Part shown: positions 1 through 62,347 of the stretch, piece by piece
Numbering within the stretch: the stretch's first letter is position 1
Layout of the letters: the number at the start of each line of letters is the position of its first letter
IMG/VR virus record: IMGVR_UViG_3300010355_000898
Coordinates: 192,001-256,000 of that record
Length of the DNA: 64,000 bases
Strand: one strand, 5' to 3'
DNA from: a virus
Taxonomy: Duplodnaviria > Caudoviricetes
Made by a program: the position numbers and the translations under genes
The notes under the pieces: model-generated
Databases searched by the model: none
What the model saw: the letters and a program-made list of their open reading frames with translations, nothing else
What the model was told of the DNA's origin: nothing

Positions 1-653
1 GTTGTGATATTTTTGTCAATTTTTGTATTTCTTGATATGTTTGTTTTTATGACAATACCAACATTTGGATCATCACTGAATGTTTCACACATCCATTTTA
101 ATGTATAGAAAATATTCTTTCTATCATTTTCTGGATTGTTTCCAGTTATTTGGCCAAACAACAAAAAATTGAACTCAGTGTCAATATTGAGATCAATTTT
201 TGCATCATTATTCAAAATTTCATTTGGAAATGCTTCAGGAACTATTGAGCAATTTTCAACATTTCCAATGCTATTCATTGCATGCTTTGATGGAAAGATC
301 ACATGATCCATTCTTTTACAATGATTTAACCAATCTGGATTTGAGATGTCTGTTTCAATTGCTGCCGTCAGTCCAATGTTTGTTGTTGCGATTGAATTAT
401 CCCATTCATTTGGTAGTTGTAATTGTAATGAAACGTCAAATCCTTTCAAATTTGTTGATGATGCATCAAATATTTTTCCAATCATACCATCATACTGATT
501 ACGATTTAAGATCCATGGTGTATCTCCCCATGGCATTATTTGAAATTTCACATCATATTTTTTTTCATCCAATAACCACTTTGCCACTTGACGACAATGT
601 ACGCCATAACCAGACTGTGTCAATATTGGGCCACGTAAAAGTACACTTTTCAT
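1..653 (-). CDS. Glycosyltransferase (GT-B), partial; runs off the window start
   Basis: Manual translation from ATG at 653: MKSVLLRGPILTQSGYGVHCRQVAKW..., a GT4-like N-terminal SGYG motif. ATGA overlap with the upstream GT. Absent from the ORF track because it is truncated. Confidence 0.75.
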   Translation of the reverse strand, partial: MKSVLLRGPILTQSGYGVHCRQVAKWLLDEKKYDVKFQIMPWGDTPWILNRNQYDGMIGKIFDASSTNLKGFDVSLQLQLPNEWDNSIATTNIGLTAAIETDISNPDWLNHCKRMDHVIFPSKHAMNSIGNVENCSIVPEAFPNEILNNDAKIDLNIDTEFNFLLFGQITGNNPENDRKNIFYTLKWMCETFSDDPNVGIVIKTNISRNTKIDKNIT

Positions 654-1897
654 ATTGAATTAACATTCCACCTTTTGATGTCAGAATTTTTCCAATCATT
701 GATCAATTTTGTTAATGACATATCCCAATCATTGATTGTGTTTTTCATATTGAACTTTGTTTGTGCATTAATTTGTGCCAAATTACCAATTCTTTCTCGC
801 TCACTCTGTGGTAATTTATACATTTTCATGATTGCGTCTGTTACTTTTTTATGTGAAACATAATCTTCATAAATGTATGGTATCATTTGATTTCCAACAA
901 GTGATTTCACATCCGGTTCGAGTGCACAACCAAATTCTGTGCCTGTTTCATCATCAAATACTTGTTCTATCATTCCACCAGTTTTCACAGCAATCAATGG
1001 TTTTGCTGCCATTTTTGCTTCCAACAGTGACAATCCAAATCCTTCATTGAGTGAAACATTTATCACAACGTCACTCAAATTGTATATGACATTCATCTTT
1101 TGAAAATCAAGTCTTTCATTTGAAAAGACAACATTTTCATTCAATTTCAACTGATCAATTACTCTGTGTAAATTTGGACCTTCCTGATCAAAGGGATCAG
1201 TATGCATCAACAATGTTGCTTTTGAATGACCTTCAGAAATTTGCAATTGATCTATAAATTGACGCCATGAAACAAGCAAATCATTTGCTCTCTTTCTTCT
1301 TGCATTTCTTGACACAAACAGCACAATAAAATGATCAGCTCTATTTTGTCCCAAAAGCTGAATTTTATTCTGTCTATTCTGTTCTTGCGTTAATTGAAAA
1401 TAGAGTTCATTTGGAACAGCATGAGGTATATAACCAACATTGTGTGTTGGCATATTTTCTTTCAACATATTGAAAGTCTGTTTGTTGATGCAATTGATCA
1501 GATCACAACTTTCATACAACACTCTGTTGAATTCTGGCCAGGGTGGATTGTCCCAAAGATGGTTGTATGCTATTGGACACACAGAATGTATTTCATCTTC
1601 CATTTCAAAAATGTGGATAAAAAATCTTGGGTCCGTGAACAATAGAACACAATCTGGCTGTTCTGTAGCAATTGCGTGGCGAATAAGATCTCTGGTACCA
1701 AAACCATCGATTGGTTTTATGATGAAATCATCATTCACTGTGACAATATCATAATTGTCATGTTTAACAGCTGCACCAAAACATTTGAAATTGTACCTAC
1801 CAGTTTCAATCAACCCATTGATCAACCATCTTGCTTGTGTACCAACACCTGAGCTTGATAATGGGTGATCAGAAAACAATAGTATTTTGTTTTTCAT
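650..1897 (-). CDS. GT4-family glycosyltransferase
   Basis: N-terminal SSSGVG, RNARRKR, and the GT4 donor-binding motif EGFGLSLLEA. Confidence 0.9.
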   Translation of the reverse strand: MKNKILLFSDHPLSSSGVGTQARWLINGLIETGRYNFKCFGAAVKHDNYDIVTVNDDFIIKPIDGFGTRDLIRHAIATEQPDCVLLFTDPRFFIHIFEMEDEIHSVCPIAYNHLWDNPPWPEFNRVLYESCDLINCINKQTFNMLKENMPTHNVGYIPHAVPNELYFQLTQEQNRQNKIQLLGQNRADHFIVLFVSRNARRKRANDLLVSWRQFIDQLQISEGHSKATLLMHTDPFDQEGPNLHRVIDQLKLNENVVFSNERLDFQKMNVIYNLSDVVINVSLNEGFGLSLLEAKMAAKPLIAVKTGGMIEQVFDDETGTEFGCALEPDVKSLVGNQMIPYIYEDYVSHKKVTDAIMKMYKLPQSERERIGNLAQINAQTKFNMKNTINDWDMSLTKLINDWKNSDIKRWNVNSI

Positions 1898-1944
1898 CAA
1901 AAATATAGTAACACAATCATATGTCTTGGTTAATAGTTAATGAT

Positions 1945-2172
1945 ATGAAACTTACTGAAGATGTGCTGCGTAAACTTATAAAAGAAGCATATGAAGATGA
2001 AGGAATTGATTTGACTGAAAAACTTCAAGGTGCAATTCTTGAAATTGAAGAAGATTTGTATGGTTATGGTGATCTTTTCAAAAGATATTCAGATGAAAAT
2101 GGATTACGTTTATATCAAGCATACCAATTACTTCTAAAACAATTTGAAGCTGTAAAATCTTGGGTTAAGTAA
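1945..2172 (+). CDS. Small protein with MKLT..LRKLIKE N-terminal helix; possible head-internal protein
   Basis: MKLTEDVLRKLIKEAYE. ATAGTTA motif at 1933-1939 just upstream. Opposite strand to its neighbours. Confidence 0.6.
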   Translation: MKLTEDVLRKLIKEAYEDEGIDLTEKLQGAILEIEEDLYGYGDLFKRYSDENGLRLYQAYQLLLKQFEAVKSWVK

Positions 2173-2177
2173 CAGTT

Positions 2178-2981
2178 TCATTTACACCATTCAGTATTTT
2201 TGAATTCACACCATTTACAGGCATTGCGATTTTTTAGAGCAATGCCTTTTTTTACGGCACTGATCATATTGTTGACAACTTTTATTGAACGTTCTGTTGT
2301 CAGATCACCAACAGATACTTTGATGAATTCACAACGTTTTCCCTGTTTTGCTACCTTTTTCAAGAGAAGAAATCCACATTGAATATCTTTTGGATCAATA
2401 TTCAATTTTTTTGAATAGAAATTTTTGTACAGGACCAATTGTGATTGGATCATTTTATCAGAACGTTTTTCAGCATTCCAACCCCAATTTGTTGTTTTGA
2501 AATCAATAATCCAATATTTCCACTTTTTTCCACTTTTTGTTGGAACCTTGATTATGCAATCAATAAAACCTTTGAATGCATGTTGTGGAAATTTTTCCAA
2601 TTGCTCATACAATTGGTGTTCTGCATCAACAGGTTGCCAATCAGGAAATGTTTCATTCAAATATTGAGGTAATTCCAACAATATTGCTTCAATATTTTCT
2701 AGGGCACTTGTGAGTGTTTCATGAGGATGAGCATGCTCGAGCCACAATTGCTTGAGCATATTTTGTGCAATGGTTACATCCATTGTTCCGGAATTCAAGA
2801 AATTTTCACACCCAGCATGTGCTGATGTACCAAAATCAAGAATTTCACTCGGTTTTTGATTGTCAATTTTTTCAATGTGATGCAATTTATGACGCCAACT
2901 GCATTCAGACCATTCTTTAACTTCTGAAAAACTTACATGAGGTTTTCCAGTTATTAGATTTTCAAATTGCAATTCAGACAT
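2178..2981 (-). CDS. PD-(D/E)XK nuclease, Cas4/AddB-like
   Basis: SFSE..W..C near the N-terminus, KGFID, IIDFKT, QL.LY, and C-terminal CKWC...C (1+3 Cys, Fe-S staple pattern). Confidence 0.85.
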   Translation of the reverse strand: MSELQFENLITGKPHVSFSEVKEWSECSWRHKLHHIEKIDNQKPSEILDFGTSAHAGCENFLNSGTMDVTIAQNMLKQLWLEHAHPHETLTSALENIEAILLELPQYLNETFPDWQPVDAEHQLYEQLEKFPQHAFKGFIDCIIKVPTKSGKKWKYWIIDFKTTNWGWNAEKRSDKMIQSQLVLYKNFYSKKLNIDPKDIQCGFLLLKKVAKQGKRCEFIKVSVGDLTTERSIKVVNNMISAVKKGIALKNRNACKWCEFKNTEWCK

Positions 2982-3994
2982 TAGCTTTTCTTTTCTGGCA
3001 CAATGAAATCAAATTGAAGTTGCTCACCAACGTTTTTGTTGTCTTCAATTTGACTAACCGCACGACCCTTCAGTTTTTCCCAATCTCTTTCAGGACGAAC
3101 TTCAAGATTTTTTTGCCATGCTGCGGACAACACTTTTGGATCAACACCAAGTTGTTTTGACAAAAAGATTAATGAATTCAAATCCTTAACAAAACATGAG
3201 CCAGCGAAACCAGGCAATAATCTACCGGTTCCATCATCTGCCGGCATTGGTCCTGGGACTTTCCAATGTGAATTACCCAATCGCTTATCAAGCGTTGCAA
3301 GCTCAACTATTCTATCATAGTCAATATCTTGACCGGTTTCAAGCAACTTTTCACAAACTTGATATATTTCATTTGCAAATGAAACCTTAACAGCTAAGAA
3401 ATTGTTGATCATATATTTCACCATCTCTGCATTAACTGCTGATGTTTTATGAATTGGAACTTGAGGAAATGCCAACATAAACAATTCTTTAACCTTATTG
3501 ATCCAAGGTCGTGGACCACCAAGAATGATCCTATCCTGATTTCTCATATCATTGAGTGCATTTGCTTCTGTAAGAAATTCAGGACAAAAAACTACATATA
3601 ATCCTTTGTCAACAAATTTTTTGTTCCAATTGTCAACACTTCCAGGTGTGACAGTTGATTTGATCACGGCAATACGTTCACCAGAAACTGATGCCAATTC
3701 TTCCAATGCACCATCGACAATTGACAAATCACAACTTCCATCCATTTTCATTGGCGTTGGAAGACATACAAAATAGATACCAGAAAAATTTGTTTCTCTA
3801 TTTTCAACAGTTTCGCACCTATCAATTAGGTTTGATATTGATGTTACATCACCTTTGTAATCAATTGGGATAGAACTACCTTCAACTCGCTTACCAGTTT
3901 TATCATATGTATAAACTGTTAAACCTCGTTCAGAAAGAACTGTCGTTAAAGATCCGCCAACAAAGCCTTGCCCAATTACTGCTACACTTGTCAT
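2981..3994 (-). CDS. ugd: UDP-glucose/GDP-mannose 6-dehydrogenase family (short form)
   Basis: GQGFVG Rossmann motif, CLPTP, IKSTV.PG, PEFL.E, AEMVKY..N.FLA.KVSFANE, catalytic GFAGSCFVKD. Confidence 0.9.
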   Translation of the reverse strand: MTSVAVIGQGFVGGSLTTVLSERGLTVYTYDKTGKRVEGSSIPIDYKGDVTSISNLIDRCETVENRETNFSGIYFVCLPTPMKMDGSCDLSIVDGALEELASVSGERIAVIKSTVTPGSVDNWNKKFVDKGLYVVFCPEFLTEANALNDMRNQDRIILGGPRPWINKVKELFMLAFPQVPIHKTSAVNAEMVKYMINNFLAVKVSFANEIYQVCEKLLETGQDIDYDRIVELATLDKRLGNSHWKVPGPMPADDGTGRLLPGFAGSCFVKDLNSLIFLSKQLGVDPKVLSAAWQKNLEVRPERDWEKLKGRAVSQIEDNKNVGEQLQFDFIVPEKKS

Positions 3995-4032
3995 ATTGAC
4001 ATATTTCAACAAAATTTATGATTGTTCAAAAA

Positions 4033-4770: not shown

Positions 4771-5678
4771 AATTCATCAATCAACTTTCTAAATTCATTA
4801 TAGCCCTGTGGTAATTTCAAAAAATCTACATTTGGAATGTGTGGTTTTGCCAATGTAACATCATCATTTATTGCCTCTTGTGGTAAAACTATGTCTGCAA
4901 TTCCAACGTTTCTTGAAACAACTGGAACATCAAGAAGTCCGCATTCAATTAGGGCTTGAGGTCCACCTTCAACTCTTGATGTTATTGGATACAAATTCAA
5001 CATCTGATACAGATCATTTATGACATTTTGTTCAGGACGTTCAAAATAGTGATATTCTATTCCAAGATCATCCAATTTTTTCATAACATATTGTCTTCTC
5101 CAACCTGCCAAAATTACTTCCAATTTGAATTCATTTTTTCCCAATTTCTGCAATTTATCACATGCTTTAATGAACAAATCTGGACCTTTTTCAAGTTTTG
5201 GAGAGGTCAAATCATTGCCCTCTGTATCTCTCTGAAATGAGCCAATCAAAAATACATCATTTGGTACATTGTACTTTTTTCGTAAATTGATAATGTCATC
5301 AGTTTTGTACCAAATTTTTTGATTTGCCCAAAATGGAATTGTAACAATCCTTTTTGTTGTCAATTTGCTGATGAATTCAGCAGTGTGGTGATTTGCAGCA
5401 TGATATACATCTGTTATGTCATCTCTCATCTGAAAATCATAACGTTCATTTGGGCCAAATTTTTCTGGGACGATGTGATGAATTGATGTTATCACTCTTT
5501 TCTGTTTCAGAAATTGATATGGCAATTCTTTCCAACGCCAATCTGATAATAACCATATAACATTAGCACTCATTGGATCTTTGACTGTTATGTCCTGATT
5601 ATCAATTGACCATTCATTAACAAATCTATCACAAATCCAATTTTCATTTGCTGGCAATAACCAAACTCTATTGTGCAT
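4767..5678 (-). CDS. GT4-like glycosyltransferase
   Basis: EKGPD, SRVEGGPQALIE, PVVSRNVG. Confidence 0.85.
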   Translation of the reverse strand: MHNRVWLLPANENWICDRFVNEWSIDNQDITVKDPMSANVIWLLSDWRWKELPYQFLKQKRVITSIHHIVPEKFGPNERYDFQMRDDITDVYHAANHHTAEFISKLTTKRIVTIPFWANQKIWYKTDDIINLRKKYNVPNDVFLIGSFQRDTEGNDLTSPKLEKGPDLFIKACDKLQKLGKNEFKLEVILAGWRRQYVMKKLDDLGIEYHYFERPEQNVINDLYQMLNLYPITSRVEGGPQALIECGLLDVPVVSRNVGIADIVLPQEAINDDVTLAKPHIPNVDFLKLPQGYNEFRKLIDEL

Positions 5679-6603
5679 TCAGAACCTCATCAAAAAGTTT
5701 GATATACTGATCACAAACTCTATCCATTGAAATGTCATGATGTTTTCCCAAAGAATTTCTTTTTGGTAAATAACTCAATTGTTTTACATCAATTTGTGGT
5801 GGATTATCATAATCATACAATTCAAAATTGTATTTGACGCTATCATTAATGATCATACCATATTCATTCACCAATTCTTTTGTTCCACCAGTGTTTGAAC
5901 AGATGACTGGTAAATCCATACCCAGGGCCTCCACAATTACATTAGGACAATGGTCTGCCCAAGCTAAATGGATCATCCAATCTGATTGTGAATAAATGTT
6001 TAAGCAGTCTTGGTGAGGAATTGTACCAGTGTAATATACATGTGGATCATGTGCATTCACATATGGATTTGAACCCAAGATTATAAGACAACTGTTTTGA
6101 TATCCCAAATCATTTTTGATGTGCTGATAGCAATCAATATTTGCTTCAAGTCTTTTCTGACTGTGCCAATTTGATGAAGAAACAAATACAGTATCGTACT
6201 GTTTTCGTAATGATAGTTGTCCAAATTTGATATTTTCATCAGAAAGATCAATTCCATTGAGAATTGTTGAACACAATTTGTGTTTACCAAACCACTTTTC
6301 TGTCATCTGTTTATCAAAATCTGATTGAAATACACATGCATCAGTTGCATTGTATGTTTCAACAATGTTTCTATTCTTTAGATTGAATTCTTCAGGTTTA
6401 AACCAAATTCCATCAAGTCTTATTATGGACTTTTTTGCCAACCTATTTCCTGATTTTTCTATGAACACAAGAGACACATCTGCATTGTCTGAACTTTGCA
6501 ACACATGATGTCCCCTTTTGAAGAATGCTTTTGCTAAACGTAAAGCAAAACTGTTGGGCCCAGTTCTGCTGTTGAAATCAACATTGTCAAAATGAATATT
6601 CAT
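5668..6603 (-). CDS. GT4-like glycosyltransferase
   Basis: ILNGID, QKRLE, DHCPNVIVEALG..LPVICSNTGG. Confidence 0.85.
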   Translation of the reverse strand: MNIHFDNVDFNSRTGPNSFALRLAKAFFKRGHHVLQSSDNADVSLVFIEKSGNRLAKKSIIRLDGIWFKPEEFNLKNRNIVETYNATDACVFQSDFDKQMTEKWFGKHKLCSTILNGIDLSDENIKFGQLSLRKQYDTVFVSSSNWHSQKRLEANIDCYQHIKNDLGYQNSCLIILGSNPYVNAHDPHVYYTGTIPHQDCLNIYSQSDWMIHLAWADHCPNVIVEALGMDLPVICSNTGGTKELVNEYGMIINDSVKYNFELYDYDNPPQIDVKQLSYLPKRNSLGKHHDISMDRVCDQYIKLFDEVLNAQ

Positions 6604-6962
6604 GAACGTCTTTTAATTTCAATGATGAATTGTTCAGCAAATGGCGTACCATTAAAAATGGTTGCAAGCATTGCCAATTCTTTTGTTTCAATGTTTTTTG
6701 GATCAGCATATGCATCAAATATGTTTTCATCCAACAGATCACTATTATTGTTGATTTCTATACTCAAATAGAACATTTGAGAAATGAGGTTCATGGCTTC
6801 ATTTGTCAGTTCAATATTTGATCCTTTCATTACATCAACCATGGTATTGAAAATTTCACTGTATATTTGAATGCATAATGTTCTTGTTATTGGCTGTTCT
6901 GCTGTAATTTTTTTCAATTTTTCTGTCAACAATGTTGAAATTGATTTGAATACATTGTTCAT
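6600..6962 (-). CDS. Hypothetical helical protein, paralog of 6959-7333
   Basis: ATGA-coupled within the operon; aligns colinearly by eye with its neighbour. Confidence 0.7.
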   Translation of the reverse strand: MNNVFKSISTLLTEKLKKITAEQPITRTLCIQIYSEIFNTMVDVMKGSNIELTNEAMNLISQMFYLSIEINNNSDLLDENIFDAYADPKNIETKELAMLATIFNGTPFAEQFIIEIKRRS

Positions 6963-7333
6963 GATAACATCTTTCTGCTGTTCAATTCTTCACTCAGATC
7001 ATCATACAACAATGTATTATTCAACAATTTTATCAATTGTTCAAGATCTTGTGTTTTCAGATCTTTTGTTGAATATTCATTCATCATAATCAATTCTGAA
7101 ATTTTCATTTCATTTATTTGCAAATTTTTGAAATACTTCATTGTTAACCACTTTATTGCAATGTCAGAAATGTACGTTTGATTGTTGATCAATGTGGCAG
7201 TTATTTCATTCTTGATTTCATTAAAGATTTTGTGCAGTGCAACATCTGGTTGCAAATTTTGTGTTGCAAGTTTTGAAACCTCTTGCTGCACAATGATTGG
7301 CAATGTTTTTTCGAGTGTTTGATTGAAAGTCAT
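6959..7333 (-). CDS. Hypothetical helical protein, paralog of 6600-6962
   Basis: Operon coupling and colinear similarity with 6600-6962. Confidence 0.7.
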   Translation of the reverse strand: MTFNQTLEKTLPIIVQQEVSKLATQNLQPDVALHKIFNEIKNEITATLINNQTYISDIAIKWLTMKYFKNLQINEMKISELIMMNEYSTKDLKTQDLEQLIKLLNNTLLYDDLSEELNSRKMLS

Positions 7334-7352
7334 ATCTAGATTTTATAGCATA

Positions 7353-8144
7353 ATGATTTACATTGGTACAACAATATCATCGACATTGGAAAGTAATAGT
7401 CAAGACTTTTTCAAATCTGTTGAAAAGAATGATCAACATCAACATTTTTGTTGTGCAATAAACATGAAAAATTTGAAAACATTCATCAATGATCACAAAT
7501 CATTCAATTTCATAAATCTTGACATCAAAAATGTTTCATCAAAATATTATGATGGTTGGCCTGAAAATAGACAAAATTTTGTTTCACTACAAACAGGTGA
7601 ATTTGTTGAATATATTGAATGCGATGATGATGACGTTGTCATTTTTTGTGATTATGATATCACAATGCAAAAGCCATTGACAAACGCACACATCGAAATG
7701 TTCTCATCAATTGATGAGAATACATTCCTTTTAGAATATGATCATTTTCCACCAATCATGTGTTTACATGATTATTGTTTGATGTTTAAACCAATCTGTG
7801 GTGATCAAAAAATATTTGAACTGTTTCCAGAAAATATGAAATCATTGCATGTATACAATGCAGGTGTCATTGTTGCAAAATTTGGTGCATGGAAAAAATT
7901 GTGGAAAAATGTTTCAAATGTTTATTGCAACATATCAAATTTTAGACATCATGGCGCAATCCAATTTTTATTGAACCATTGTATGCAAATTGATGGTTTA
8001 AGAATACAAAACTTACCATTTGATATTCATAATGCTTTTTGGTTCAATGGCACAAAAAGCTATGAAAAGAATAGAAAATTGCATATTGATGGAATACCTG
8101 TTGTGTTTTCACATCACAAATTTATGAAAACATATTCATTCTGA
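7353..8144 (+). CDS. GT8-like / nucleotide-diphospho-sugar transferase (GT-A)
   Basis: DxD motif FCDYDI, YNAGV, Q..LN, and terminal FSHH. Confidence 0.65.
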   Translation: MIYIGTTISSTLESNSQDFFKSVEKNDQHQHFCCAINMKNLKTFINDHKSFNFINLDIKNVSSKYYDGWPENRQNFVSLQTGEFVEYIECDDDDVVIFCDYDITMQKPLTNAHIEMFSSIDENTFLLEYDHFPPIMCLHDYCLMFKPICGDQKIFELFPENMKSLHVYNAGVIVAKFGAWKKLWKNVSNVYCNISNFRHHGAIQFLLNHCMQIDGLRIQNLPFDIHNAFWFNGTKSYEKNRKLHIDGIPVVFSHHKFMKTYSF

Positions 8145-9096: not shown

Positions 9097-9111
9097 AAAA
9101 CAAATAGTACT

Positions 9112-9915
9112 CTACTTTTTCAGATATTTGGCAGCCATTACACAACTCAATTTTGTTTTTTCATAACAATGATGTTCAAACCATTGTGTTGTGTCAATAA
9201 TTGGTATTCTGTGTTTTGAACAAAAATAGTTGTATGCTGTCTGTTCACTGCAAGACCAAATTTTTACTCTAATGTTTTCACCTTCTGAGAACTTAACAAT
9301 TGATGAAATGTCAACGTCAATAAGTTTTTGTGTCAAAATTTTCAATTCATCTTTGTGAGTATGAAATTTTTGTGGTAGTGCAAAAATACCCATATTGTGA
9401 ATATCAAAATTGCTGGTGTTGAATGCTTTTTCAGCTGCATACTTTTCACCCCAATGCAATTTTCCATCTGAACATTTACGTTCAAATTTCCACATCAGTG
9501 CATTATCATCAATCAAATTGAACAGATCATCACAGTTTTTTAAGCATGTCAAATCATTATCAAGTTTGATAACATTTTCATGTTCACAAAATTCTTGTGA
9601 ATAGTATTCAACTATGGGCCAAAAACAATATTCATGTTGTGACCACTTTTTTATCAATTCAGAATTTTCAACAACATTCAAATTGTTACAGTTGACATCA
9701 TATTGTGAAATTTTTGACAATAACAATTCTCTATTGTCAGTTAAGACATCATATTGCGTTTTTTTATTGTGATTTAGTACTGTTGCTATTGATGCTGCAG
9801 CATACTCAAAAATGTTATCCCTATTTTTGTAACCTTCTTTTGCCCAAACTCTACCACTGGAATACATTTTCAAAAAATCATAATCAAACACAAGACTGAT
9901 GAATTTGTTATTCAC
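9112..9915 (-). CDS. Putative GT-A glycosyltransferase (GT8-like)
   Basis: VLTDN, KLDNDL (DxD), NMGIF, SEQTA. GTG start overlaps the upstream TGA. Confidence 0.6.
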   Translation of the reverse strand: MNNKFISLVFDYDFLKMYSSGRVWAKEGYKNRDNIFEYAAASIATVLNHNKKTQYDVLTDNRELLLSKISQYDVNCNNLNVVENSELIKKWSQHEYCFWPIVEYYSQEFCEHENVIKLDNDLTCLKNCDDLFNLIDDNALMWKFERKCSDGKLHWGEKYAAEKAFNTSNFDIHNMGIFALPQKFHTHKDELKILTQKLIDVDISSIVKFSEGENIRVKIWSCSEQTAYNYFCSKHRIPIIDTTQWFEHHCYEKTKLSCVMAAKYLKK

Positions 9916-10559
9916 AACAACTCTTTCTTGACAAAGATTGCATCTCCCCAATCAAATTTTGTCATATTTGTTTCCATTCTTTTGTATCCAAATTGATTGA
10001 GATATTCTTCCAATTCTGGTAGAAGACAACAATTTTCATACAGTGTGTCTGTGTTGACTTCACTATAAATGAAATCAAATTTTGTTATGAGATTTCCAAT
10101 ACCTTTCAGAACTTTCAATTCGGCACCTTGAACATCCATATTCAAGAAATTGAACATGTTCAGATCAATATTCAAATTCTCATATATCTGATCAAAACGT
10201 TGTGTTTGCAATTTCAATACCTTATCAACTGTTATGTTTGGATAGTGCACAAGATGTTTATCAAGTTTCAGCATTGATGATGATGCCGATCTGAAATTGG
10301 TTGTTACATAAAAATCAACATGTTCTTCAGTGTCAGATAACAGAATATTGTATGCAACATTGTGATCATAAGTTTCAATATTCTGCTTCAGAATATTGAA
10401 TGTTTCAGGATTTGCCTCAAACCAGACAACATTTTTTACATCACAATTTGCATATGCTTCTCTCTCTTCACCAGTGCATGCACCAACATGAATTATGCCT
10501 TTGATCTGCTTTTTGGGATTGTATTTTTCAAACAGATCTTCAAATTTTATGTACATCAT
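9912..10559 (-). CDS. FkbM-family methyltransferase
   Basis: IHVGAC.GEE, WFEANP, SSSML, MDVQGAELKVLKG, YSEV, WGDA. Confidence 0.9.
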   Translation of the reverse strand: MMYIKFEDLFEKYNPKKQIKGIIHVGACTGEEREAYANCDVKNVVWFEANPETFNILKQNIETYDHNVAYNILLSDTEEHVDFYVTTNFRSASSSMLKLDKHLVHYPNITVDKVLKLQTQRFDQIYENLNIDLNMFNFLNMDVQGAELKVLKGIGNLITKFDFIYSEVNTDTLYENCCLLPELEEYLNQFGYKRMETNMTKFDWGDAIFVKKELL

Positions 10560-11266
10560 TTTATGATCCCCCGAATGTTTGGATTTATGTTGTATTCTTT
10601 ATGAAGATTTTTCAATTCATTTTCATACAATCTGTAATTCCATTTACCTTTTGATATTGCAGTACAAATATGTGGATATGCTTTACATTCATAATGATAT
10701 TTTCCAATCTTTTTTTCATCATTATGGTATGTAAAAAGACCTCTAATGTTTAGGCTTGTGCAAGCCTCTGTCCAATGTTTTCCTTCAAACCACAATTTTG
10801 ATTTTGCACGTTCATACAACTTTATGAAATCATGCCTTTTCCAGATTGTAATTTGCATTTGAAATATGTCTTGTACAAACTGTGGTGCTTCATAATAGTG
10901 TTCAACAATCAATTTCATATCATCATTGAATCCACACCTAAATGGTCTGATGTATGAATATTCTTTATGATTTGATAGAAAATCTGTGTGCATACTGAAT
11001 GCATTCATATCAATTTTTCCAATTGCTGTATGATCATCTTGTGAATATATGATGTAATCATAATCAATCTGATTGAGTGCATTTACCCAATGTTTATAGT
11101 AATCATCATCATTCTGATATTTCAAAAATGTATGATTTTGTACTCTTGGATCAACATCTGAAATCACATAGCTGTCAACATTGACGTATTTTGTCAACTG
11201 ACCAAAATGCATTGGCCAAATATCACAATATTTGTTGTTTGTGTATGTTACAATTGCAATTGACAT
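10556..11266 (-). CDS. Putative GT-A glycosyltransferase
   Basis: Y.DIW, YIIYSQDDH, Q.TIW, AI.KGKW; a pattern seen in GT-like proteins of sugar clusters, plus gene context. Confidence 0.55.
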   Translation of the reverse strand: MSIAIVTYTNNKYCDIWPMHFGQLTKYVNVDSYVISDVDPRVQNHTFLKYQNDDDYYKHWVNALNQIDYDYIIYSQDDHTAIGKIDMNAFSMHTDFLSNHKEYSYIRPFRCGFNDDMKLIVEHYYEAPQFVQDIFQMQITIWKRHDFIKLYERAKSKLWFEGKHWTEACTSLNIRGLFTYHNDEKKIGKYHYECKAYPHICTAISKGKWNYRLYENELKNLHKEYNINPNIRGIIK

Positions 11267-12105
11267 GCGTTGTATTCATTATACAACTTTTCAATTGAAA
11301 TTTTGATTGATAATTCTGTTTGATGATCAATCTCATTTGTTCTTGCACTATCAATTGCAGGTGTCGTTTTCATAATTCCACCATCAATGATCGACGTAAG
11401 CATATTCATTTGTTCAAATTTTGTTGAAGCATACTTTTCAAATCCTTGCAATACAGGTACTTGCATAATGTCACACAATTTTTCAAATATATCTGTTCTC
11501 CAAATTGTAGGTCTGGATGTATAATGCCAATTTGTTTTCAAAAACTTGTATGAGTTTACATCATTACATTGTTCCCAAATCAATTTTTGATTTGAAACTG
11601 TATTGTAAAATCTGATTGCATCAGGATTTTTTGATTTATTTGTTATGTCACAATTGTACTGATTGAAATTGTTGAATTCAATAATCGGCACTCTAACGCA
11701 AGCAACATCTGCATTATTTTTATCATCCAAATGTTTGATGCATGCAATCAATTTTTCATTTGCATCTTGATGCATTATGAAATCATCATAACAATACATC
11801 AAATAGTCAGAATTGTTACGTTTTGCTTCCCATAGTGTTACAAAAAACACTGCAATATCAAAAAAGTTTTCATTGAAATGAACATACTTTTTGAATGGTT
11901 TGTTTTGTAATGTTTGCTTTACGCATTCAATTGAACAGTTATCAACTGAAACACAATTGAATTTTTCAATGTATTTGAATGTATTGATGCTATCATTGAA
12001 GTGTTTTTGACGATAACTTTTGTTGGCTTCATTAACATACGTTAAATAACCAATTGTCAATTTATTGTGCAAATTTGTTGAAAAATTGTTCATAAAGTTT
12101 TGCAA
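11248..12105 (-). CDS. Putative GT2-like glycosyltransferase
   Basis: VDNCS, YLMYCYDDF, RPTIW. Confidence 0.55.
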   Translation of the reverse strand: MQNFMNNFSTNLHNKLTIGYLTYVNEANKSYRQKHFNDSINTFKYIEKFNCVSVDNCSIECVKQTLQNKPFKKYVHFNENFFDIAVFFVTLWEAKRNNSDYLMYCYDDFIMHQDANEKLIACIKHLDDKNNADVACVRVPIIEFNNFNQYNCDITNKSKNPDAIRFYNTVSNQKLIWEQCNDVNSYKFLKTNWHYTSRPTIWRTDIFEKLCDIMQVPVLQGFEKYASTKFEQMNMLTSIIDGGIMKTTPAIDSARTNEIDHQTELSIKISIEKLYNEYNACQLQL

Positions 12106-12955
12106 TATTGTTTATGTGAAATTGTTTTGCCCACTCATATGATCTGTTTGAAATATCCATTCTCAATTTATGATCACAAATCAACATTTCAAGTTTTTCA
12201 ATGAATTCATTTTTTGATGTTATTGATAACCATGCATCTCCACCAAATTCTTCAAAACTTTTATATCCACTTGAAACAGTTGGAATTCCATATGATTGAA
12301 AATTTGTCAATTTTGCATTTGGTTTGAATTGATGTACATATGATTTATAACCACAATTTTCAACAAAAATTGCTCCAATATCAATTGTTTTCATCAATTC
12401 ATGACATTCAATTCTTGTATTTGGATGTTTATGAACAAAATTGATATCATACTTTTTGCACAATTTTTCAACATCATCATATGCATCAAATTGATTCTGA
12501 ATTCCAATGAAACCTAAAGTTTCAACATTCTGTTTCACATCAATTCTATGTTTTTCAAAATTGACAGCATGATGTGGTATCACTGATATACGTTCATCAT
12601 CAATGAATTTTTTCATTTTCAATAATGCTGATGAATTGTTGACAATTATTCCATCAACGTTGTTAACATAATGCGACCAATCAATTTCATTTTCACCATT
12701 TGGATACTGTTTATGCTGATCAGCAACAGGTCTATCAAGAAGATCATAAACTATTTTGCAATTTTGGTGTTTCAATCTTTTTGCCAAATCAACATCAATT
12801 TGACGAATGAATATAACAATGGCATTATTCAATTTCAAGATTTCCTGTCTGTTCAAATTGATGTCAAAAAATCTTGAATCATTTATTACACCTGAAATTT
12901 GTATGCCTCTTATCAACCCAGATGTGCGTTCTTTCATTCCAATGAAAGCAATCAT
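12062..12955 (-). CDS. Putative GT-B glycosyltransferase
   Basis: VYDLLD, VIPHH, KPNAKL.NF.SYGIPTV, C-terminal LR..IS...A..F. Confidence 0.7.
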   Translation of the reverse strand: MIAFIGMKERTSGLIRGIQISGVINDSRFFDINLNRQEILKLNNAIVIFIRQIDVDLAKRLKHQNCKIVYDLLDRPVADQHKQYPNGENEIDWSHYVNNVDGIIVNNSSALLKMKKFIDDERISVIPHHAVNFEKHRIDVKQNVETLGFIGIQNQFDAYDDVEKLCKKYDINFVHKHPNTRIECHELMKTIDIGAIFVENCGYKSYVHQFKPNAKLTNFQSYGIPTVSSGYKSFEEFGGDAWLSITSKNEFIEKLEMLICDHKLRMDISNRSYEWAKQFHINNIAKLYEQFFNKFAQ

Positions 12956-13875
12956 TTCATAACCTCAAACATATATTGTACTCTTGCTTGTGCTGTATGA
13001 TATAGTTCAGCATGTTTCCAACAATCTGTCTGAATTGTTTTGAAAAGTTCATAATCTGATAAAACAGTTCTCAATTTCATATTCAATTCATCAATAGTGT
13101 CAAATTTGATACAATTTTTCATATCTTCAAAATCATGTGGCATTATAATATGCCATCTTTGGTATGCTGGAATTGCACCCTGACCTATAATTTCCCACAA
13201 TCTTGCATTGCAATCACCACCACCCCATGCATCAATTCCAATCTTTGATTGTTTCAGATTGTTGATATATTCATCAAATTTGATGCCCGATTTTTTGAAA
13301 ACTTTGTAATCTTTAAATTCACAATTATAGATTTGAGATCTCAAACCAGTTTGCAATTGACCAAAACATGTAAACAGATCATAATGACGATTATGATCAT
13401 CAAAATGTGTGTTCTGCACAATACCAAATGGTAATGGCACTATTCCTTTATCAATGTCATCAGGATAACATTCTCTTTTAAAGTACCATTTACACCTTCT
13501 GAAAAAATGATCATTAATCCAGGGTTCTCCTCGCCTTCTTAATGCATTATTCATTGATAACAAAACTTGATTTGGTAATGGGTATGCAGTTGCAGTCCAT
13601 TCACTACCATCAATGTATGCTACCTTTTCCCATGCATTTATATTGTTCAAAAGATTGTATTTTGGTGGTGAATTATCTCGAACTTTTCCAAAAAAAGCAA
13701 AAATGTAATCACAATCTTTTGCATATTGAATAAATTCATAATCATTCAAATTCTGTACACAACCATTACCAGAATTTGAAACCTCAAATTGTATATTAGC
13801 ACTCTTTAAGCCAGACAATACAGTTGAAACAAGATAATCATGTTTCCTATCTGGCGTTATGCAAGCTATTCTCAT
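12952..13875 (-). CDS. Putative GT-B glycosyltransferase (CgeB-like C-terminus)
   Basis: YIDGSE, YFKRE, L.QSKIGID.WGGG.CN.RLWE, HT..ARV.Y. Confidence 0.7.
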   Translation of the reverse strand: MRIACITPDRKHDYLVSTVLSGLKSANIQFEVSNSGNGCVQNLNDYEFIQYAKDCDYIFAFFGKVRDNSPPKYNLLNNINAWEKVAYIDGSEWTATAYPLPNQVLLSMNNALRRRGEPWINDHFFRRCKWYFKRECYPDDIDKGIVPLPFGIVQNTHFDDHNRHYDLFTCFGQLQTGLRSQIYNCEFKDYKVFKKSGIKFDEYINNLKQSKIGIDAWGGGDCNARLWEIIGQGAIPAYQRWHIIMPHDFEDMKNCIKFDTIDELNMKLRTVLSDYELFKTIQTDCWKHAELYHTAQARVQYMFEVMK

Positions 13876-14792: not shown

Positions 14793-15535
14793 ACAAAATT
14801 TTCCCATGGAGCACCATTTGCAACATAACCACGATTTCTTATGAAATCGGCTTCCATTTTTTGGAATTTTGCATCATCAGTTTGAAACGTTTCTGGTTTC
14901 ACGTCAATTGTGTAATGATACATTACCCTTGGTATGAAAACATTTTTTCTTGATTGATGAAGAACCGGAAGATAGAGGGCCTGATCTCCACAACGTTTTA
15001 CTGGATCACCGTTGTGATTTGAGAAATTTTCCCATGGAATATTTGTAAGCAATTGTTTTCTGAATGTTTTGAGATGACTTGTTACCCATGGTTGAACATA
15101 TACACTAATTCCCTCTTTTAGAGGAGCAGATATGTTGAAATCTGACATGTCCCAACGATGTTTTGACCAAGCACAATCACATCCAGTTTGTTCATAACAT
15201 GCATTAAATTGATACAATGCATCCAAATCACAAAGATAATCATCAGCATCAATTCTGCAAATGATATCATCATCATTACACTGTTTAATACCATTCAGAA
15301 CATTAACAGTTTCCCATTTCTTTTTGTCATTCCAAACTGTTATGATTTTGTGTTCATAACAGTTGAACTGTTTCAAAATTTCAATACATTTTTGTTTATG
15401 TTCTGCATCAGAAACATCATCAATCAGTACTAACTGCCAATTTTCATATGATTGACCAGCTAAACTGTGTAACATTCTTGCAAGTGTTTTGCTTGCATTA
15501 TACATTGGTGCAATGAAAACAAATCGATTATTCAT
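14789..15535 (-). CDS. GT2 glycosyltransferase
   Basis: APMYNA, S..GQSY.NW, IDDVSD, RIDADD. Confidence 0.9.
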   Translation of the reverse strand: MNNRFVFIAPMYNASKTLARMLHSLAGQSYENWQLVLIDDVSDAEHKQKCIEILKQFNCYEHKIITVWNDKKKWETVNVLNGIKQCNDDDIICRIDADDYLCDLDALYQFNACYEQTGCDCAWSKHRWDMSDFNISAPLKEGISVYVQPWVTSHLKTFRKQLLTNIPWENFSNHNGDPVKRCGDQALYLPVLHQSRKNVFIPRVMYHYTIDVKPETFQTDDAKFQKMEADFIRNRGYVANGAPWENFV

Positions 15536-17453
15536 GATTAGTCCAAGAATTCATAATTTTGGGTTCAGATTCACTGATTGTAATCCAAGGAGTTGGACGA
15601 TTAAAATCAATCCTTGTGTGAAAAATCCAACCACCAAGATCATTTTTCATTCTTGTGGCCAATTTTTCAATTTCATCATCTGTAACTTCTGACCAAGATT
15701 TTTCGAAAAACATATTATTTTCTGGTATGTCAGTTTGAACTTTGTTGAAGAGTGACATCCAATGTTTTGACCAATAATTTTTGTATGTGTGTATTTTTCG
15801 CTCAATATTGAACCATGAATAATGATAAATGCTTGGAACATTTTTGATCAAATTTTTTGCCCAATTTTCATATATTTTCAATGCTGATGCATTTCCATTC
15901 AATGCATCAAGACGAATTTTTTCAACATCTTGATGATAGAATGTTGCAAATGGAACGCTTTCAAATGTGTCACAGAAAATGTAATCACATCCATCAGATC
16001 CCAAAGAATAGAGCTCGCCATTTTCATCATATGCTCTGTGATTTTTTGGTATGCCATGTGTAATATTTGACACATTTCTTGACAATCTCCATTTCCATGG
16101 ATTTACATCAACTCTAACCTTTTCATGACCACCCCAATATTCAATCACTGGCAATGCAATGAGATCACATTGTTCTGGGAAGTTTTTTGCAATATTTCTG
16201 ATCTTTTCATAATCATGTTCATTAACAACTTCATCAATATCCTGCTGCCAACAATATTTCCCTTTACACTGTTCTCTTGCATACGCTTTCTGTTGACCAT
16301 CAAACAATGCAAATCTTTTATCATTCCAATCCCTTTTTAGTTGTTTCAATATCAATTTTGGTTCTTCAACTGACCATTTTTGCAATTCTTCCCATGTACC
16401 ATCAGTTGAACCACCATCAATGACAACAACTTCATCACAAAATCCCAATAGTGAAATTATTGATTGTCGCCAAGGATATTTTTGTTCAATACAATTTCTT
16501 GTTTGAGTATATCCTGACAAAAGAATGTCATTTTTTGCATCATTAACAGAATTCCAAAACACATTTTTTGCATTTGTAAGATGTTCAATCATGTCATGAT
16601 TTTCACCATTGAACCATTGTTCATTTTTATGTTGAACATGATCATTGATGATCAGTTTACAATTGAGCATTTTTGCTTCAATTACCATTCTTGGACATGT
16701 GTCACCACCATTTGGCAAATAAACAAATCCTTCTGCTGATGCAATTTTTTTCAATGTTTCATCATATGAAAGACCCCAAATTATTTCTGGATTTATGTTT
16801 TTTGATCTGCACCAATTGAGTGCATTTTCATATCCTTTGACCCAAGATTGTGATCCAAGTACAATCCACCCAGATTTTTTTTCATTCTGTAATTCAAGTT
16901 TCAGTTTACTGATTGAATTCAGAGTATCATCTGAAAATACACTTGACAGAATGATGTTTTTTGTATTTGAAAGATATGAAAATCTTGTATGATATATGTT
17001 CTTTTGTGTTTCAGACATCCAAAACAGAATCTTTGCACCCTTATACAGTGATGCAATCATTTTTCCATGTTCTGAATTGTGACAATTGCATGGAACATGC
17101 TCTAAAAACATATGCTTTTCAATTGATCTGTGTACACAAAACTTGTAATCATATTCAATGACACAATAGTTGAGCATGCTGATAATGCTGGGGATTAGGT
17201 TATTGTTCATTGTTGAACAATTGCAGAAGATCCAAAATTTGTCCCTATTCTGCTCTATGATCTTTTTTGTGAGATTTTTTGCTTTCAATCTTGTGACTGA
17301 ACTTGAACTTTTGGCGCTCTGTATGAGCGCCTCTGTGGTCAATTCTGCACCACCAGAATATTCATCTGCAAAAAGATCAGCAACAAAAATATATTCAGCT
17401 TCCTGTGGAATCTGTTCCATGACATCAAATAATGATTTTGAAAAATCAAACAT
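15528..17453 (-). CDS. Bifunctional glycosyltransferase (GT-B N-terminal + GT2 C-terminal)
   Basis: N-terminal GGAE, KGY and DTCPRMVIEA; C-terminal DEVVVIDGGSTDGT and QDIDE. Confidence 0.85.
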   Translation of the reverse strand: MFDFSKSLFDVMEQIPQEAEYIFVADLFADEYSGGAELTTEALIQSAKSSSSVTRLKAKNLTKKIIEQNRDKFWIFCNCSTMNNNLIPSIISMLNYCVIEYDYKFCVHRSIEKHMFLEHVPCNCHNSEHGKMIASLYKGAKILFWMSETQKNIYHTRFSYLSNTKNIILSSVFSDDTLNSISKLKLELQNEKKSGWIVLGSQSWVKGYENALNWCRSKNINPEIIWGLSYDETLKKIASAEGFVYLPNGGDTCPRMVIEAKMLNCKLIINDHVQHKNEQWFNGENHDMIEHLTNAKNVFWNSVNDAKNDILLSGYTQTRNCIEQKYPWRQSIISLLGFCDEVVVIDGGSTDGTWEELQKWSVEEPKLILKQLKRDWNDKRFALFDGQQKAYAREQCKGKYCWQQDIDEVVNEHDYEKIRNIAKNFPEQCDLIALPVIEYWGGHEKVRVDVNPWKWRLSRNVSNITHGIPKNHRAYDENGELYSLGSDGCDYIFCDTFESVPFATFYHQDVEKIRLDALNGNASALKIYENWAKNLIKNVPSIYHYSWFNIERKIHTYKNYWSKHWMSLFNKVQTDIPENNMFFEKSWSEVTDDEIEKLATRMKNDLGGWIFHTRIDFNRPTPWITISESEPKIMNSWTNHE

Positions 17454-17550: not shown

Positions 17551-17610
17551 TCAGTGGTCAGTGGTCAGTGGTCAGTGGTCAGTGGTCAGTGGTCAGTGGT
17601 CAGTGGTCAG
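17551..17610. repeat. Perfect tandem repeat (TCAGTGG) x8 + TCAG
   Basis: Read directly from the sequence. Confidence 0.97.
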
Positions 17611-61907: not shown

Positions 61908-61925
61908 AGTGATAATATATCAAGT

Positions 61926-62132: not shown

Positions 62133-62133
62133 T

Positions 62134-62346: not shown

Positions 62347-62347
62347 A

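Follow-up and report, generated by a model that had tools for sequence, protein, structure and literature searches.

A candidate virion-protein glycosylation island in a 270-kb wastewater phage

Mycobacteriophages Che8, Corndog and Myrna (Freeman et al. 2023, Cell Host Microbe 31:1216) are the precedent for glycosylation of phage virions: according to citing papers such as PMC12619734, each system has two to four soluble phage glycosyltransferases (GTs), which are proposed to modify capsid and tail proteins of the same phage in the host cytoplasm, with C-terminal acceptor tags and proof by mass spectrometry. Chloroviruses, which infect eukaryotes, use enzymes of their own for cytoplasmic glycosylation of the capsid protein, building unusual virion-protein glycans without the ER/Golgi or membrane carriers; their proteins (PBCV-1 A064R, A111/114R, A075L and A546L; NY-2A B736L) include cytoplasmic GTs, methyltransferase activity and sugar-nucleotide enzymes (PMC5408694), although B736L and A546L are themselves functionally uncharacterised. 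Large sets of GTs and NDP-sugar epimerases also make up the 'LPS / cell-wall' clusters of T4-like cyanophages (P-SSM2, S-SCSM1, and S-SCSM2R with 13 GTs), which have been read, on non-experimental grounds, as modifying the host surface (PMC12801897). In DNA glycosylation clusters (T4 agt/bgt; RB69/DLP3 poly-arabinosyl-5hoC, PMC13326640; MT/TET/GT, bioRxiv 10.1101/2023.12.21.572611), GT4-fold GTs and phage-made sugar nucleotides are combined with a ThyA-family base-hydroxylating enzyme; the GTs adjoin the base-modifying enzyme and add one to three sugars.

The island described here is an 18-kb block in a 269,547-bp phage record, of which the window analysed is a stretch of 64,000 nt. It runs from 489 nt before the window start, where the GT380 gene ends, to window position 17,453, and holds 19 tightly packed minus-strand genes and 2 plus-strand ORFs (Table 1). 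A preliminary description, made from the window alone, had noted tight gene coupling and continuation past the window edge; the minus-strand run is indeed contiguous from position 1, with mostly ATGA-type overlaps, and the continuation amounts to those 489 nt. The island shares the codon usage of the other phage genes (RSCU r 0.98), as the description had it, and this agreement, together with a frame of genes kept in relatives, rules out a chimeric join to host DNA.

Table 1. Features of the island in window coordinates.
Feature	Position	Strand	Evidence
GT4-like glycosyltransferase GT380, tail frame	1..653	-	full gene L003:1511-2653:-; Pfam PF00534 E 8e-9
GT4 glycosyltransferase GT416, tail frame	650..1900	-	Pfam E 5e-14; model pLDDT 82
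Small 83-aa ORF, opposite strand	1921..2172	+	
Cas4/AddB-type PD-(D/E)XK nuclease, 267 aa, frame gene	2178..2981	-	Pfam PF12705 E 4e-17; alignment
NDP-sugar dehydrogenase-like protein, 343 aa	2981..4012	-	Pfam PF03721 + PF00984; TIGR03026 just below cut-off
Class I SAM methyltransferase (Methyltransf_24, O-methyltransferase-like), 245 aa	4033..4770	-	Pfam E 5e-12
GT-B (GT4-like) glycosyltransferase, 303 aa	4767..5678	-	Pfam; in 27/80 loci
GT-B (GT4-like) glycosyltransferase, 311 aa, widely shared	5668..6603	-	Pfam; in 42-43/80 loci
Two small genes, 124 aa + 120 aa	6600..7333	-	120-aa gene conserved in 11 loci
273-aa ORF, opposite strand	7323..8144	+	fills sole gap of minus-strand run
GDP-mannose 3,5-epimerase homologue, 324 aa	8122..9096	-	PDB 2c59 E 4.4e-100, res 3-319; Pfam Epimerase
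279-aa protein	9112..9951	-	weak GT8 lead only
FkbM-family SAM methyltransferase, 215 aa	9912..10559	-	Pfam PF05050 E 3e-17; TIGR01444 above cut-off
236-aa protein, variable cassette	10556..11266	-	no Pfam, PHROG or PDB match of note
GT-A-fold glycosyltransferase-like protein, 285 aa, variable cassette	11248..12105	-	Atlas structure search, TM 0.62-0.67 to GT2 clusters
Probable GT-B glycosyltransferase, 297 aa, weak, variable cassette	12062..12955	-	PHROG glycosyltransferase E 2e-4; Pfam Glyco_trans_1_2 E 0.07
GT-B-like glycosyltransferase, 307 aa, variable cassette	12952..13875	-	Pfam Glyco_trans_1_2 E 2.8e-7, above cut-off
GT-B (GT4-like) glycosyltransferase, 311 aa	13872..14807	-	Pfam PF00534/PF13692; homologues in 28-29/80 loci
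GT2 glycosyltransferase, 248 aa	14789..15535	-	Pfam PF00535 E 5e-15
641-aa bifunctional glycosyltransferase, island head	15528..17453	-	Pfam GT2; AF2 model; Foldseek; VIA

The cluster itself is confirmed, but of the about 13 GT-like genes that had been proposed, Pfam, NCBIfam, PHROG and structure together support 10, with 11 GT domains. Above Pfam/NCBIfam threshold are six GT-B/GT4-like proteins (380, 416, 303, 307 and both 311 aa), the 248-aa GT2, the 641-aa protein and, as previously reported, two methyltransferases (245 and 215 aa). The Pfam search was empty for the 285-aa protein. The 279-aa ORF returned nothing from Pfam or PDB searches; its Atlas feature matches are viral clusters, in one of which 20% of members carry PF01501. 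No assignment could be given to the 83-, 236- and 273-aa ORFs or to the 124- and 120-aa proteins, and the last two show no phmmer similarity to each other at E <= 1. An intact Cas4-like nuclease also lies within the cluster and had gone unmentioned.

Set beside 80 related loci and three relatives that are complete or nearly so, the island proves to be a conserved frame around a phage-specific, variable middle cassette. In relatives the 641-aa gene comes first, and the nuclease, GT416 and GT380 close the island, followed by the late sigma gene and gp25-like/baseplate genes; the middle varies from phage to phage, islands reach 25-31 kb, and some relatives hold just the four frame genes. Neither the 307-aa GT-B-like gene nor the 273-aa plus-strand ORF has a homologue among the 80 loci, whereas the 248-aa GT2 occurs in 64 of them, in 45 directly after the 641-aa gene (offset +1). 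This layout is undescribed for the cyanophage clusters. It also distinguishes the island from the mycobacteriophage systems as the citing papers describe them, as do its sugar-nucleotide and methylation enzymes, its roughly ten GTs, known here from genes alone, and its host, which is probably a member of the Bacteroidota.

One of the closest systems is that of the cultured Flavobacterium phage immuto, which has an orthologous PD-(D/E)XK nuclease followed by counterparts of GT416 (immuto_89, 35% identity) and GT380 (immuto_90, 31%, E 5e-53), and in which the tail frame precedes a GT2, a methyltransferase, aminotransferases, an epimerase and further GTs. However, neither the 641-aa fusion nor the GT2 that accompanies it is present in immuto, whose island lies ~18 kb from the late sigma/baseplate genes that the studied island adjoins. 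The nuclease has four invariant Cys, and its D...D-x-K and Q...Y motifs are intact; every complete relative, the minimal islands, immuto and Mel-JY01 all have it next to GT416.

The proposed GT-B/GT2 fusion was confirmed as a GT-B plus GT-A protein in the AF2 model of the 641-aa protein (pLDDT 88.8): residues 17-310 match GT4 folds with Z up to 19.5 (VIA; 6kih), residues 305-618 match SunS at Z 15.1 (VIA), the GT-A/GT2 part (residues ~310-620) carries a DxD at D405/D407, and the GT-B part has a conserved Cys/His insert (C106, C122, C124). Its 2367 homologues are ~640 aa long and 52-58% identical, and the family occurs on 404 IMG/VR stretches with no match across 50,697 cultured phage records, the cyanophages included; the chloroviruses have no counterpart either. 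GT416 is closest in fold to 6kih (Z 35.7) and to chlorovirus B736L (Z 34.5 over 369 residues; VIA), the latter also being its nearest solved relative by sequence profile (3oy2, E 2e-11), and it is thus detectably related to B736L/A546L, with bacterial GT4s scoring nearly equal. Because phage DNA arabinosyltransferases show the same fold matches (6kih, BshA-like GT4; PMC13326640), the GT fold is silent on the acceptor.

Two enzymes bear on which sugars the island might use. The 324-aa SDR protein, described earlier as GDP-mannose-3,5-epimerase-like, is homologous over its full length to the plant enzyme (2c59), and its sequence predicts a supply of GDP-L-galactose or GDP-L-gulose. In the supposed UDP-glucose dehydrogenase the NAD-binding domain, the central domain and the catalytic Cys motif are present, whereas the UDP-binding domain at the C-terminus is missing, the PDB alignment ending at residue ~313 of 445-aa enzymes (relatives' forms are ~287 aa), which weakens the proposal of a uronic-acid-containing glycan.

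The picture of a soluble, self-contained pathway has held up across the whole record. TM-like segments are absent from all ORFs of the cluster, and the record contains no Wzx/Wzy-like polytopic protein, ligase, exporter or priming transferase (PF02397 and PF00953, with matches in controls). Bacterial O-antigen and core GTs mostly lack TM segments too, so these enzymes could instead act at the inner membrane face on host undecaprenyl-linked intermediates of LPS, O-antigen or capsule, leaving the host's priming enzyme, flippase and exporter to finish the job. The resemblance of the 641-aa GT-A domain to the cell-wall-polymer modifiers TarS, TarP and RmlT, that of GT416 to WaaG, PimA and WbnH, the O-antigen-locus look of a hypervariable cassette between conserved flanks, and the published reading of the cyanophage clusters all fit such envelope remodelling. 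We nonetheless consider it unlikely, given the missing membrane parts and two further points: the fusion occurs on phage-like contigs only, matches in bacterial genomes being limited to its GT-A part at ~30% identity, and a core 50% identical across phages that likely infect different hosts would be odd if tied to host-specific lipid-linked acceptors.

Very improbable, in our judgement, is a third alternative, in which the enzymes would make an oligo- or polysaccharide that stays free or is secreted, or would glycosylate a non-virion target, for instance a small molecule or proteins of the host. The GT-B plus GT-A layout of the 641-aa enzyme, its Foldseek matches to chondroitin polymerase (K4CP), heparosan synthase and EXT1/2, alongside RmlT, SunS and TarS/TarP, and a profile match to heparosan synthase B would fit a co-polymerase that alternates as K4CP, PmHS2 and exostosin do, but the polymerase matches reflect generic GT-A similarity (whole-chain TM 0.16-0.25), an exporter is absent and nothing points to a specific alternative acceptor.

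A search of the genome for base-modification genes, in contrast to that for export genes, did return a candidate. Besides ThyX, the phage encodes a ThyA-family protein whose best solved relative is the CMP 5-hydroxymethylase MilA (E 2.7e-42, against 1e-22 for thymidylate synthases) and which has Asp at the cytosine-specifying position; Asp is also kept at the D169 position, which by a published criterion (PMC13326640) places it outside the 5-hydroxycytosine type. Some or all of the GTs might thus glycosylate 5-hydroxymethylcytosine in the phage DNA, for which T-even phages, RB69/DLP3 and the metavirome clusters of Pyle et al. offer parallels, with the intact, conserved nuclease directed against unmodified DNA. 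Every PF00534/PF00535 gene of the genome, and so every recognisable GT, falls in the island, its GT4 fold neighbours are shared with known DNA GTs, and there are precedents for trisaccharides on DNA bases. For part of the island this is a serious, live rival given the MilA-like enzyme; overall we judge it distinctly improbable. Unlike in the DNA glycosylation clusters, the hydroxymethylase lies 130 kb from the island, in a nucleotide-metabolism module, where it is inserted within an SDR-TK pair; the pair is also conserved in its absence. Two relatives, G003 (93% complete) and G004 (100%), keep the frame and 25-kb islands with no ThyA-family gene, and we therefore count the core as independent of base hydroxymethylation. 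Immuto virion DNA contained dA, dC, dT and fdPreQ1 only by LC-MS, with no glycosylated base reported in a phage that has the tail frame (PMC10516641). At E <= 1e-5, nothing homologous to GT416 turned up in RB69, DLP3 or T4. Moreover, we know of no DNA modification that would require ten GTs, two methyltransferases and a GDP-mannose 3,5-epimerase. The earlier preference for virion protein over DNA thus gains from the relatives and from immuto, and loses from the MilA-like enzyme.

The virion proteins themselves provide a further lead, and one that envelope remodelling leaves unaccounted for. In the large outer virion proteins of this genome SGS occurs 91 times against 30.7 expected (GSS, 31); immuto baseplate, fibre and spike proteins share the [S/T]GS excess, with baseplate and fibres having SGS 33 against 7.4, TGS 28 against 6.3 and GSS 3. 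T4, which lacks these GTs, has no such excess (5 against 4.8), and that of Mel-JY01 is modest and local. The phages with an excess are mutually related and T4 is the single negative control, and the motif may instead be a structural turn. Counted against virion glycosylation are Mel-JY01, where the homologous genes adjoin replication genes, and the promoters: of 74 ATANTTA boxes in the genome, 33 lie <=45 nt upstream of a start (~2 expected), yet none of these late boxes is on the island coding strand. The shared promoter type claimed previously is thus not confirmed, and late co-expression of the island remains a supposition.

Overall, the best reading of the candidates, at a probability of about 0.5, is that the island glycosylates the phage's own outer virion proteins. 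In this proposal a soluble cytoplasmic assembly line would build the glycan on those proteins, the conserved core (the 641-aa fusion, usually with the 248-aa GT2, and the GT416/GT380 pair) carrying out the acceptor-proximal steps and the middle cassette, with four or five more GTs, the GDP-mannose 3,5-epimerase and the FkbM methyltransferase, adding a variable outer part; which sugars are used, on what acceptor and in which order is inferred. The product would be a strain-specific, methylated and probably L-galactose-containing glycan. The four-gene core is common to hundreds of uncultured phages. If the sugars were instead placed on the host envelope, the altered cell surface could exclude superinfecting phages or keep progeny off debris.

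The minus-strand glycosyltransferase (GT) cluster, here called the island, consists of a conserved frame around a swappable middle, and we give a probability of about one half to the reading that it makes a phage-encoded glycan carried on outer virion proteins. The frame has a 641-aa GT-B/GT-A fusion at its head and, at its tail, a nuclease followed by GT416 (a 416-aa GT4) and GT380 (a 380-aa GT4-like protein). The observation in the preliminary description is real, after correction of its GT count, its dehydrogenase, its promoter claim and a nuclease that it overlooked.

The island comprises 19 minus-strand genes, mostly with overlaps of at least 4 nt, in a window of 32% GC that spans bases 192001-256000 of a single 269,547-bp viral record. 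It begins 489 bases ahead of the window and reaches 17453. It had been said to continue past the window edge; it does, but only for those 489 bases, ending with the edge-spanning GT380. Beyond GT380 lie a 108-aa membrane protein, a gp55-like late sigma factor, a gp25-like baseplate protein and very large baseplate proteins. For the two plus-strand ORFs inside the operon, we found neither homologues in the relatives nor family matches. A further protein, of 313 aa, is encoded between the island and the baseplate genes; four or five hydrophobic segments fall within its final 110 residues, and the relatives have no homologue of it.

Ten GT genes carrying eleven GT domains are supported, rather than about 13 as first counted. 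Six GT-B proteins (380, 416, 303, 311, 307 and 311 aa) and two GT2 proteins (the 248-aa and 641-aa proteins) score above the Pfam gathering threshold, a 297-aa ORF has a weak GT-B call, and a 285-aa ORF takes a GT-A fold in its Atlas model (TM 0.62–0.67 against GT2 clusters); a 279-aa ORF offers a weak GT8 lead and nothing more. Family and profile searches gave no assignment for the 236-, 124- and 120-aa ORFs or the plus-strand 273-aa ORF, and single-sequence searches of the PDB with the 236-, 273- and 279-aa ORFs returned no match. An all-against-all phmmer comparison inside the island detected zero paralogy at E <= 1, the 120/124-aa pair included. Every PF00534 and PF00535 match of the genome falls inside the island.

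Among the sugar-modifying genes, both methyltransferases are confirmed, as is the GDP-mannose-3,5-epimerase-like enzyme: homology of the 324-aa SDR to plant GDP-mannose 3,5-epimerase is clear (2c59, E 4e-100), so that GDP-L-galactose or GDP-L-gulose is the predicted donor. The supposed UDP-glucose dehydrogenase stands as far as its NAD-binding and central domains and catalytic Cys motif are concerned, but the chain stops where the C-terminal UDP-binding (nucleotide-sugar-binding) domain would start, and that entire domain is missing; the relatives have still shorter conserved forms of ~287 aa. Whether the product contains a uronic acid is thus uncertain, and the enzyme may be split or repurposed. 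In the overlooked 267-aa protein four Cys are invariant and the D, D-x-K and Q...Y motifs are all preserved, so that it is an intact Cas4/AddB-type nuclease. It always lies immediately upstream of GT416/GT380, in minimal islands, in complete relatives and in the phages immuto (a cultured Flavobacterium phage) and Mel-JY01 (a Microcystis phage), an adjacency that could reflect either functional linkage or old synteny.

Coordinates of features of the island, the source record (G000:C1) and Mel-JY01 (L223); unprefixed positions are those of the window, and L001 and L164 are fetched stretches of the source record
Feature	Coordinates	Strand	Remark
Opposite-strand ORF, 83 aa	1921-2172	+	Within otherwise all-minus operon
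ATANTTA box	1933	+	By the 83-aa ORF
Cas4/AddB-type PD-(D/E)XK nuclease, 267 aa	2178-2981	-	Between dehydrogenase and GT416
NDP-sugar dehydrogenase homologue	2981-4012	-	NAD-binding and central domains; catalytic Cys motif kept
311-aa GT4	5668-6603
Opposite-strand ORF, 273 aa	7323-8144	+	Within otherwise all-minus operon
Perfect tandem arrays	17551-17764		(TCAGTGG)x8 joined to 25-mer x6
Large terminase, 937 aa	44999-47812	+	Matches other TerL in two separated pieces, about half its length
313-aa protein	L001:15675-16616 = G000:C1:187675-188616	-	Between island and baseplate genes
ThyX	G000:C1:38522-39211		Encoded besides the MilA-like protein
TviC/GalE-like NDP-sugar epimerase (SDR) and TK-like kinase	G000:C1:59342-60322 and 61858-62445 (L164)		Pair kept in relatives G003, G004 and G005
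ThyA-family MilA-like cytosine 5-hydroxymethylase, 356 aa	G000:C1:60274-61344 (L164:1252-2322)	+	Outside window
FkbM methyltransferase-annotated protein, 1226 aa	L223:4750-8430		Among Mel-JY01 structural genes

The frame emerged from a comparison of 80 fetched loci that carry the 641-aa gene. The 248-aa GT2 follows that gene in 64 of them, an SDR is present in 60 and the 311-aa GT4 in 43, while the genes of window 7323-13875 have zero counterparts among the 80. In all three complete or near-complete relatives that we fetched whole, G003 (318 kb), G004 (284 kb) and G005 (293 kb, 100% complete), the 641-aa head is followed by 25–31 kb of largely unrelated sugar genes and then by the nuclease, GT416 and GT380, with late sigma, gp25-like and baseplate genes downstream. 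Minimal contigs have 641-nuclease-GT416-GT380 alone, and intermediate ones have 641-GT2-SDR-nuclease-short dehydrogenase-GT416-GT380, so that the 18-kb island is an expanded four-gene core with a swappable middle. Hundreds of contigs from uncultured aquatic and wastewater phages carry the core, but no cultured phage has it in full.

The 641-aa head is itself phage-specific. In a model built from a 25-sequence alignment (pLDDT 88.8), residues 17-310 fold as a GT4-like GT-B domain that aligns with 6kih over 274 residues (Z 19.5, rmsd 3.5) and residues 305-618 as a GT-A domain (Z 15.1 against the peptide S-glycosyltransferase SunS), and Foldseek adds matches to RmlT, TarS, TarP and K4CP. Homologues number 2367 database proteins, nearly all of ~640 aa and 52–58% identical, and relatives are encoded on 404 IMG/VR stretches; there is no match in cultured phage records. 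Bacterial genomes match the GT-A part only, at ~30% identity, and the few full-length matches are all on MAG contigs.

Could the island be host DNA, or act on the host? Its codon usage, previously described as shared with the phage, indeed follows the rest of the genome (RSCU r 0.98; variable middle, 0.97) more closely than the average 18-gene block does (0.94), which excludes a chimeric join to host DNA. The reported lack of a flippase, Wzy, exporter or priming enzyme extends to the whole record, which is linear according to IMG/VR and 74% complete by CheckV estimate. A crude hydropathy scan found no TM-like segments in island ORFs, the ten GT genes included, no protein of at least 350 aa with at least eight such segments among the record's 367 ORFs, and no Wzx-, Wzy- or ABC permease-like ORF in the whole record; PF02397 and PF00953 priming transferases gave no match there at E <= 0.1, with controls positive in 10 and 13 of 14 genomes. 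A Wzx/Wzy- or ABC-dependent O-antigen or capsule locus differs in having an initiating transferase and a polytopic flippase, polymerase or exporter, all absent from this record. We consider it unlikely, although by no means far-fetched, that the island serves instead to remodel the host envelope. The record's final 100 bases appear again at positions 122-221, which suggests a short terminal repeat or an assembly overlap.

The phage has a very specific ATANTTA box, which occurs 74 times in the genome and precedes many structural genes; 33 copies lie no more than 45 nt upstream of a start, against ~2 expected. A promoter type shared with the rest of the phage had been ascribed to the island, but this needs correction: the island's coding strand has no ATANTTA box, the nearest being at 18447, before the upstream PAS-domain gene. 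Read-through could thus still give late expression; no clear terminator was found between the PAS gene and the island. We rejected CATAGTTG, 31 nt upstream of the 641-aa gene, as a late-box variant because it is not enriched: of 37 copies of ATAGTTG in the genome, just two stand upstream of starts. A scan for sigma-70-type promoters did not exceed chance (94 found, 104 expected). In Mel-JY01, the homologous genes come after the replication genes. Between the PAS-domain gene and the island head, at the switch in gene orientation, sit the tandem arrays listed in the table.

DNA also needs weighing as an acceptor, as 5-hydroxymethylcytosine (5hmC) is the classic substrate for phage GTs. A genome-wide search for base-modification enzymes, which the preliminary description had proposed, turned up the MilA-like hydroxymethylase, which belongs to a module for nucleotide metabolism that also encodes a TK-like kinase, an HD phosphohydrolase and a dCMP deaminase. 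Its top solved relative is the CMP 5-hydroxymethylase MilA (E 2.7e-42), followed by thymidylate synthases (~1e-22) and T4 dCMP hydroxymethylase (7e-17), and it has Asp at the cytosine-specifying position N177 (E. coli ThyA numbering). With Asp retained at 169, it lacks D169N, the signature of 5-hydroxycytosine synthases (PMC13326640). A Tet/JBP family search gave no match in the control genomes. To go by this gene, the source phage's DNA probably contains 5hmC, and both protein and DNA acceptors therefore need checking.

Even with this enzyme in its favor, glycosylation of DNA by the island GTs seems improbable to us. Known clusters for phage DNA base glycosylation pair their GTs with the hydroxylated-pyrimidine enzyme, whereas here the two are 130 kb apart, and G003 (93% complete) and G004 (100%) have the frame and large islands but neither a ThyA-family gene nor a hydroxymethylase homologue (orthologues occur in G001 and G005). 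Moreover, the hydroxymethylase and a 183-aa ORF, which in the source phage sit between the SDR and the TK-like kinase, look inserted into a pair conserved without them; we rejected that SDR as a DNA-sugar link because the pair persists in genomes lacking the hydroxymethylase. It also speaks against DNA that T4, RB69 and DLP3 have no GT416 homologue; such homologues appeared in only seven records of the cultured set (four for immuto, Mel-JY01, an uncultured 484-kb phage and Rhodothermus phage RM378). In immuto, nuclease-GT416-GT380 is followed by a GT2, two aminotransferases, a methyltransferase, an epimerase and more GTs, and LC-UV-MS/MS of its virion DNA found dA, dC, dT and fdPreQ1 fully replacing dG, with no sugar-bearing base reported (PMC10516641). 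By homology, this argues against DNA as the substrate of the conserved tail frame, although it leaves room for a cassette GT of the source phage's own that glucosylates 5hmC.

The fold of GT416 does not discriminate between acceptors. Its model (pLDDT 82) is a canonical GT4 closest to 6kih (Z 35.7), chlorovirus NY-2A B736L (3oy2; Z 34.5, rmsd 3.0, 369 residues aligned) and BshA (Z 33.5), with bacterial GT4s within 1–2 Z of B736L, which is also the top solved match by sequence profile (E 2.3e-11). B736L is a homologue of PBCV-1 A546L, whose function is itself not known; it stems from viruses in which capsid glycosylation takes place in the cytoplasm (PMC5408694). Phage DNA arabinosyltransferases have been reported with identical fold neighbours, so the fold says nothing on the acceptor. 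A GtfA/GtfB-like protein O-GT pair was rejected for GT416/GT380, as GtfA and SdgB reach only Z 21.8 against 33–36 for generic GT4s.

The virion proteins themselves may point to a protein acceptor. Ser-Gly-Ser occurs 91 times in the source genome against 30.7 expected (permuted controls: GSS 31, SSG 47), including 25 against 3.4 in a 1425-aa protein and 7 against 0.8 in the 1138-aa baseplate protein, whose orthologues in G003, G004 and G005 all show the excess; across the whole genomes of these relatives it is 1.6–2-fold. Immuto baseplate, fibre and spike proteins contain 33 SGS against 7.4 expected (permuted GSS 3, SSG 4) and 28 TGS against 6.3; in part of the Mel-JY01 structural module, a mild excess of [S/T]GS (24 against 10.2) lies mainly within one 508-aa structural protein. 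T4, which lacks GT416/GT380, shows none in its baseplate, fibre, sheath and capsid proteins (SGS 5 against 4.8; TGS 2 against 4.9). The pattern fits a putative [S/T]GS sequon travelling with GT416/GT380, in positive phages that are interrelated and with T4 as the single negative control; a structural turn motif would give the same picture. Acceptors other than virion protein, host envelope or DNA we regard as very improbable. The Mel-JY01 structural genes also include the 1226-aa FkbM-annotated gene and a 639-aa cytidylyltransferase-like one, further sugar-related genes beyond its GT island.

By its T4-type large terminase, the source phage is closest to immuto and Mel-JY01, and megablast matched the island to no cultured phage. 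The two-piece match of the terminase to other TerL suggests a large insertion, an intein or another domain. Assignment to the moraphage lineage (PMC12619734) was rejected as unproven; moraphages have PolB.

Glycosylation systems of this kind are already known in mycobacteriophages and chloroviruses, and GT-rich clusters in cyanophages; to our knowledge, virion glycosylation in phages has been proven in mycobacteriophages only. Like the mycobacteriophage systems, this island encodes soluble GTs, and like the autonomous cytoplasmic glycosylation of chloroviruses it has an A546L/B736L-family homologue in GT416; the system here is predicted from its genes. Three things are new: a frame-plus-cassette layout is built around a phage-specific GT-B/GT-A fusion that no cultured phage has, the island is uncoupled from base hydroxymethylation, and immuto has been recognised as a cultured relative in which the decisive experiment can be done. 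Because immuto is tractable and its DNA chemistry already known, that experiment is ordinary bench work.

We tentatively suggest that the four-gene core is a general virion-glycosylation engine in which swapped sugar cassettes yield strain-specific glycans, or 'phage serotypes', comparable to bacterial O-antigen diversity. The frame-plus-cassette layout offers a concrete, testable model of glycan diversification. If virions are coated in this way, the tails and heads of large environmental phages would routinely bear glycans specific to the strain, with effects on host recognition, resistance to attack by hosts and grazers, particle stability, and recognition by antibodies and lectins.
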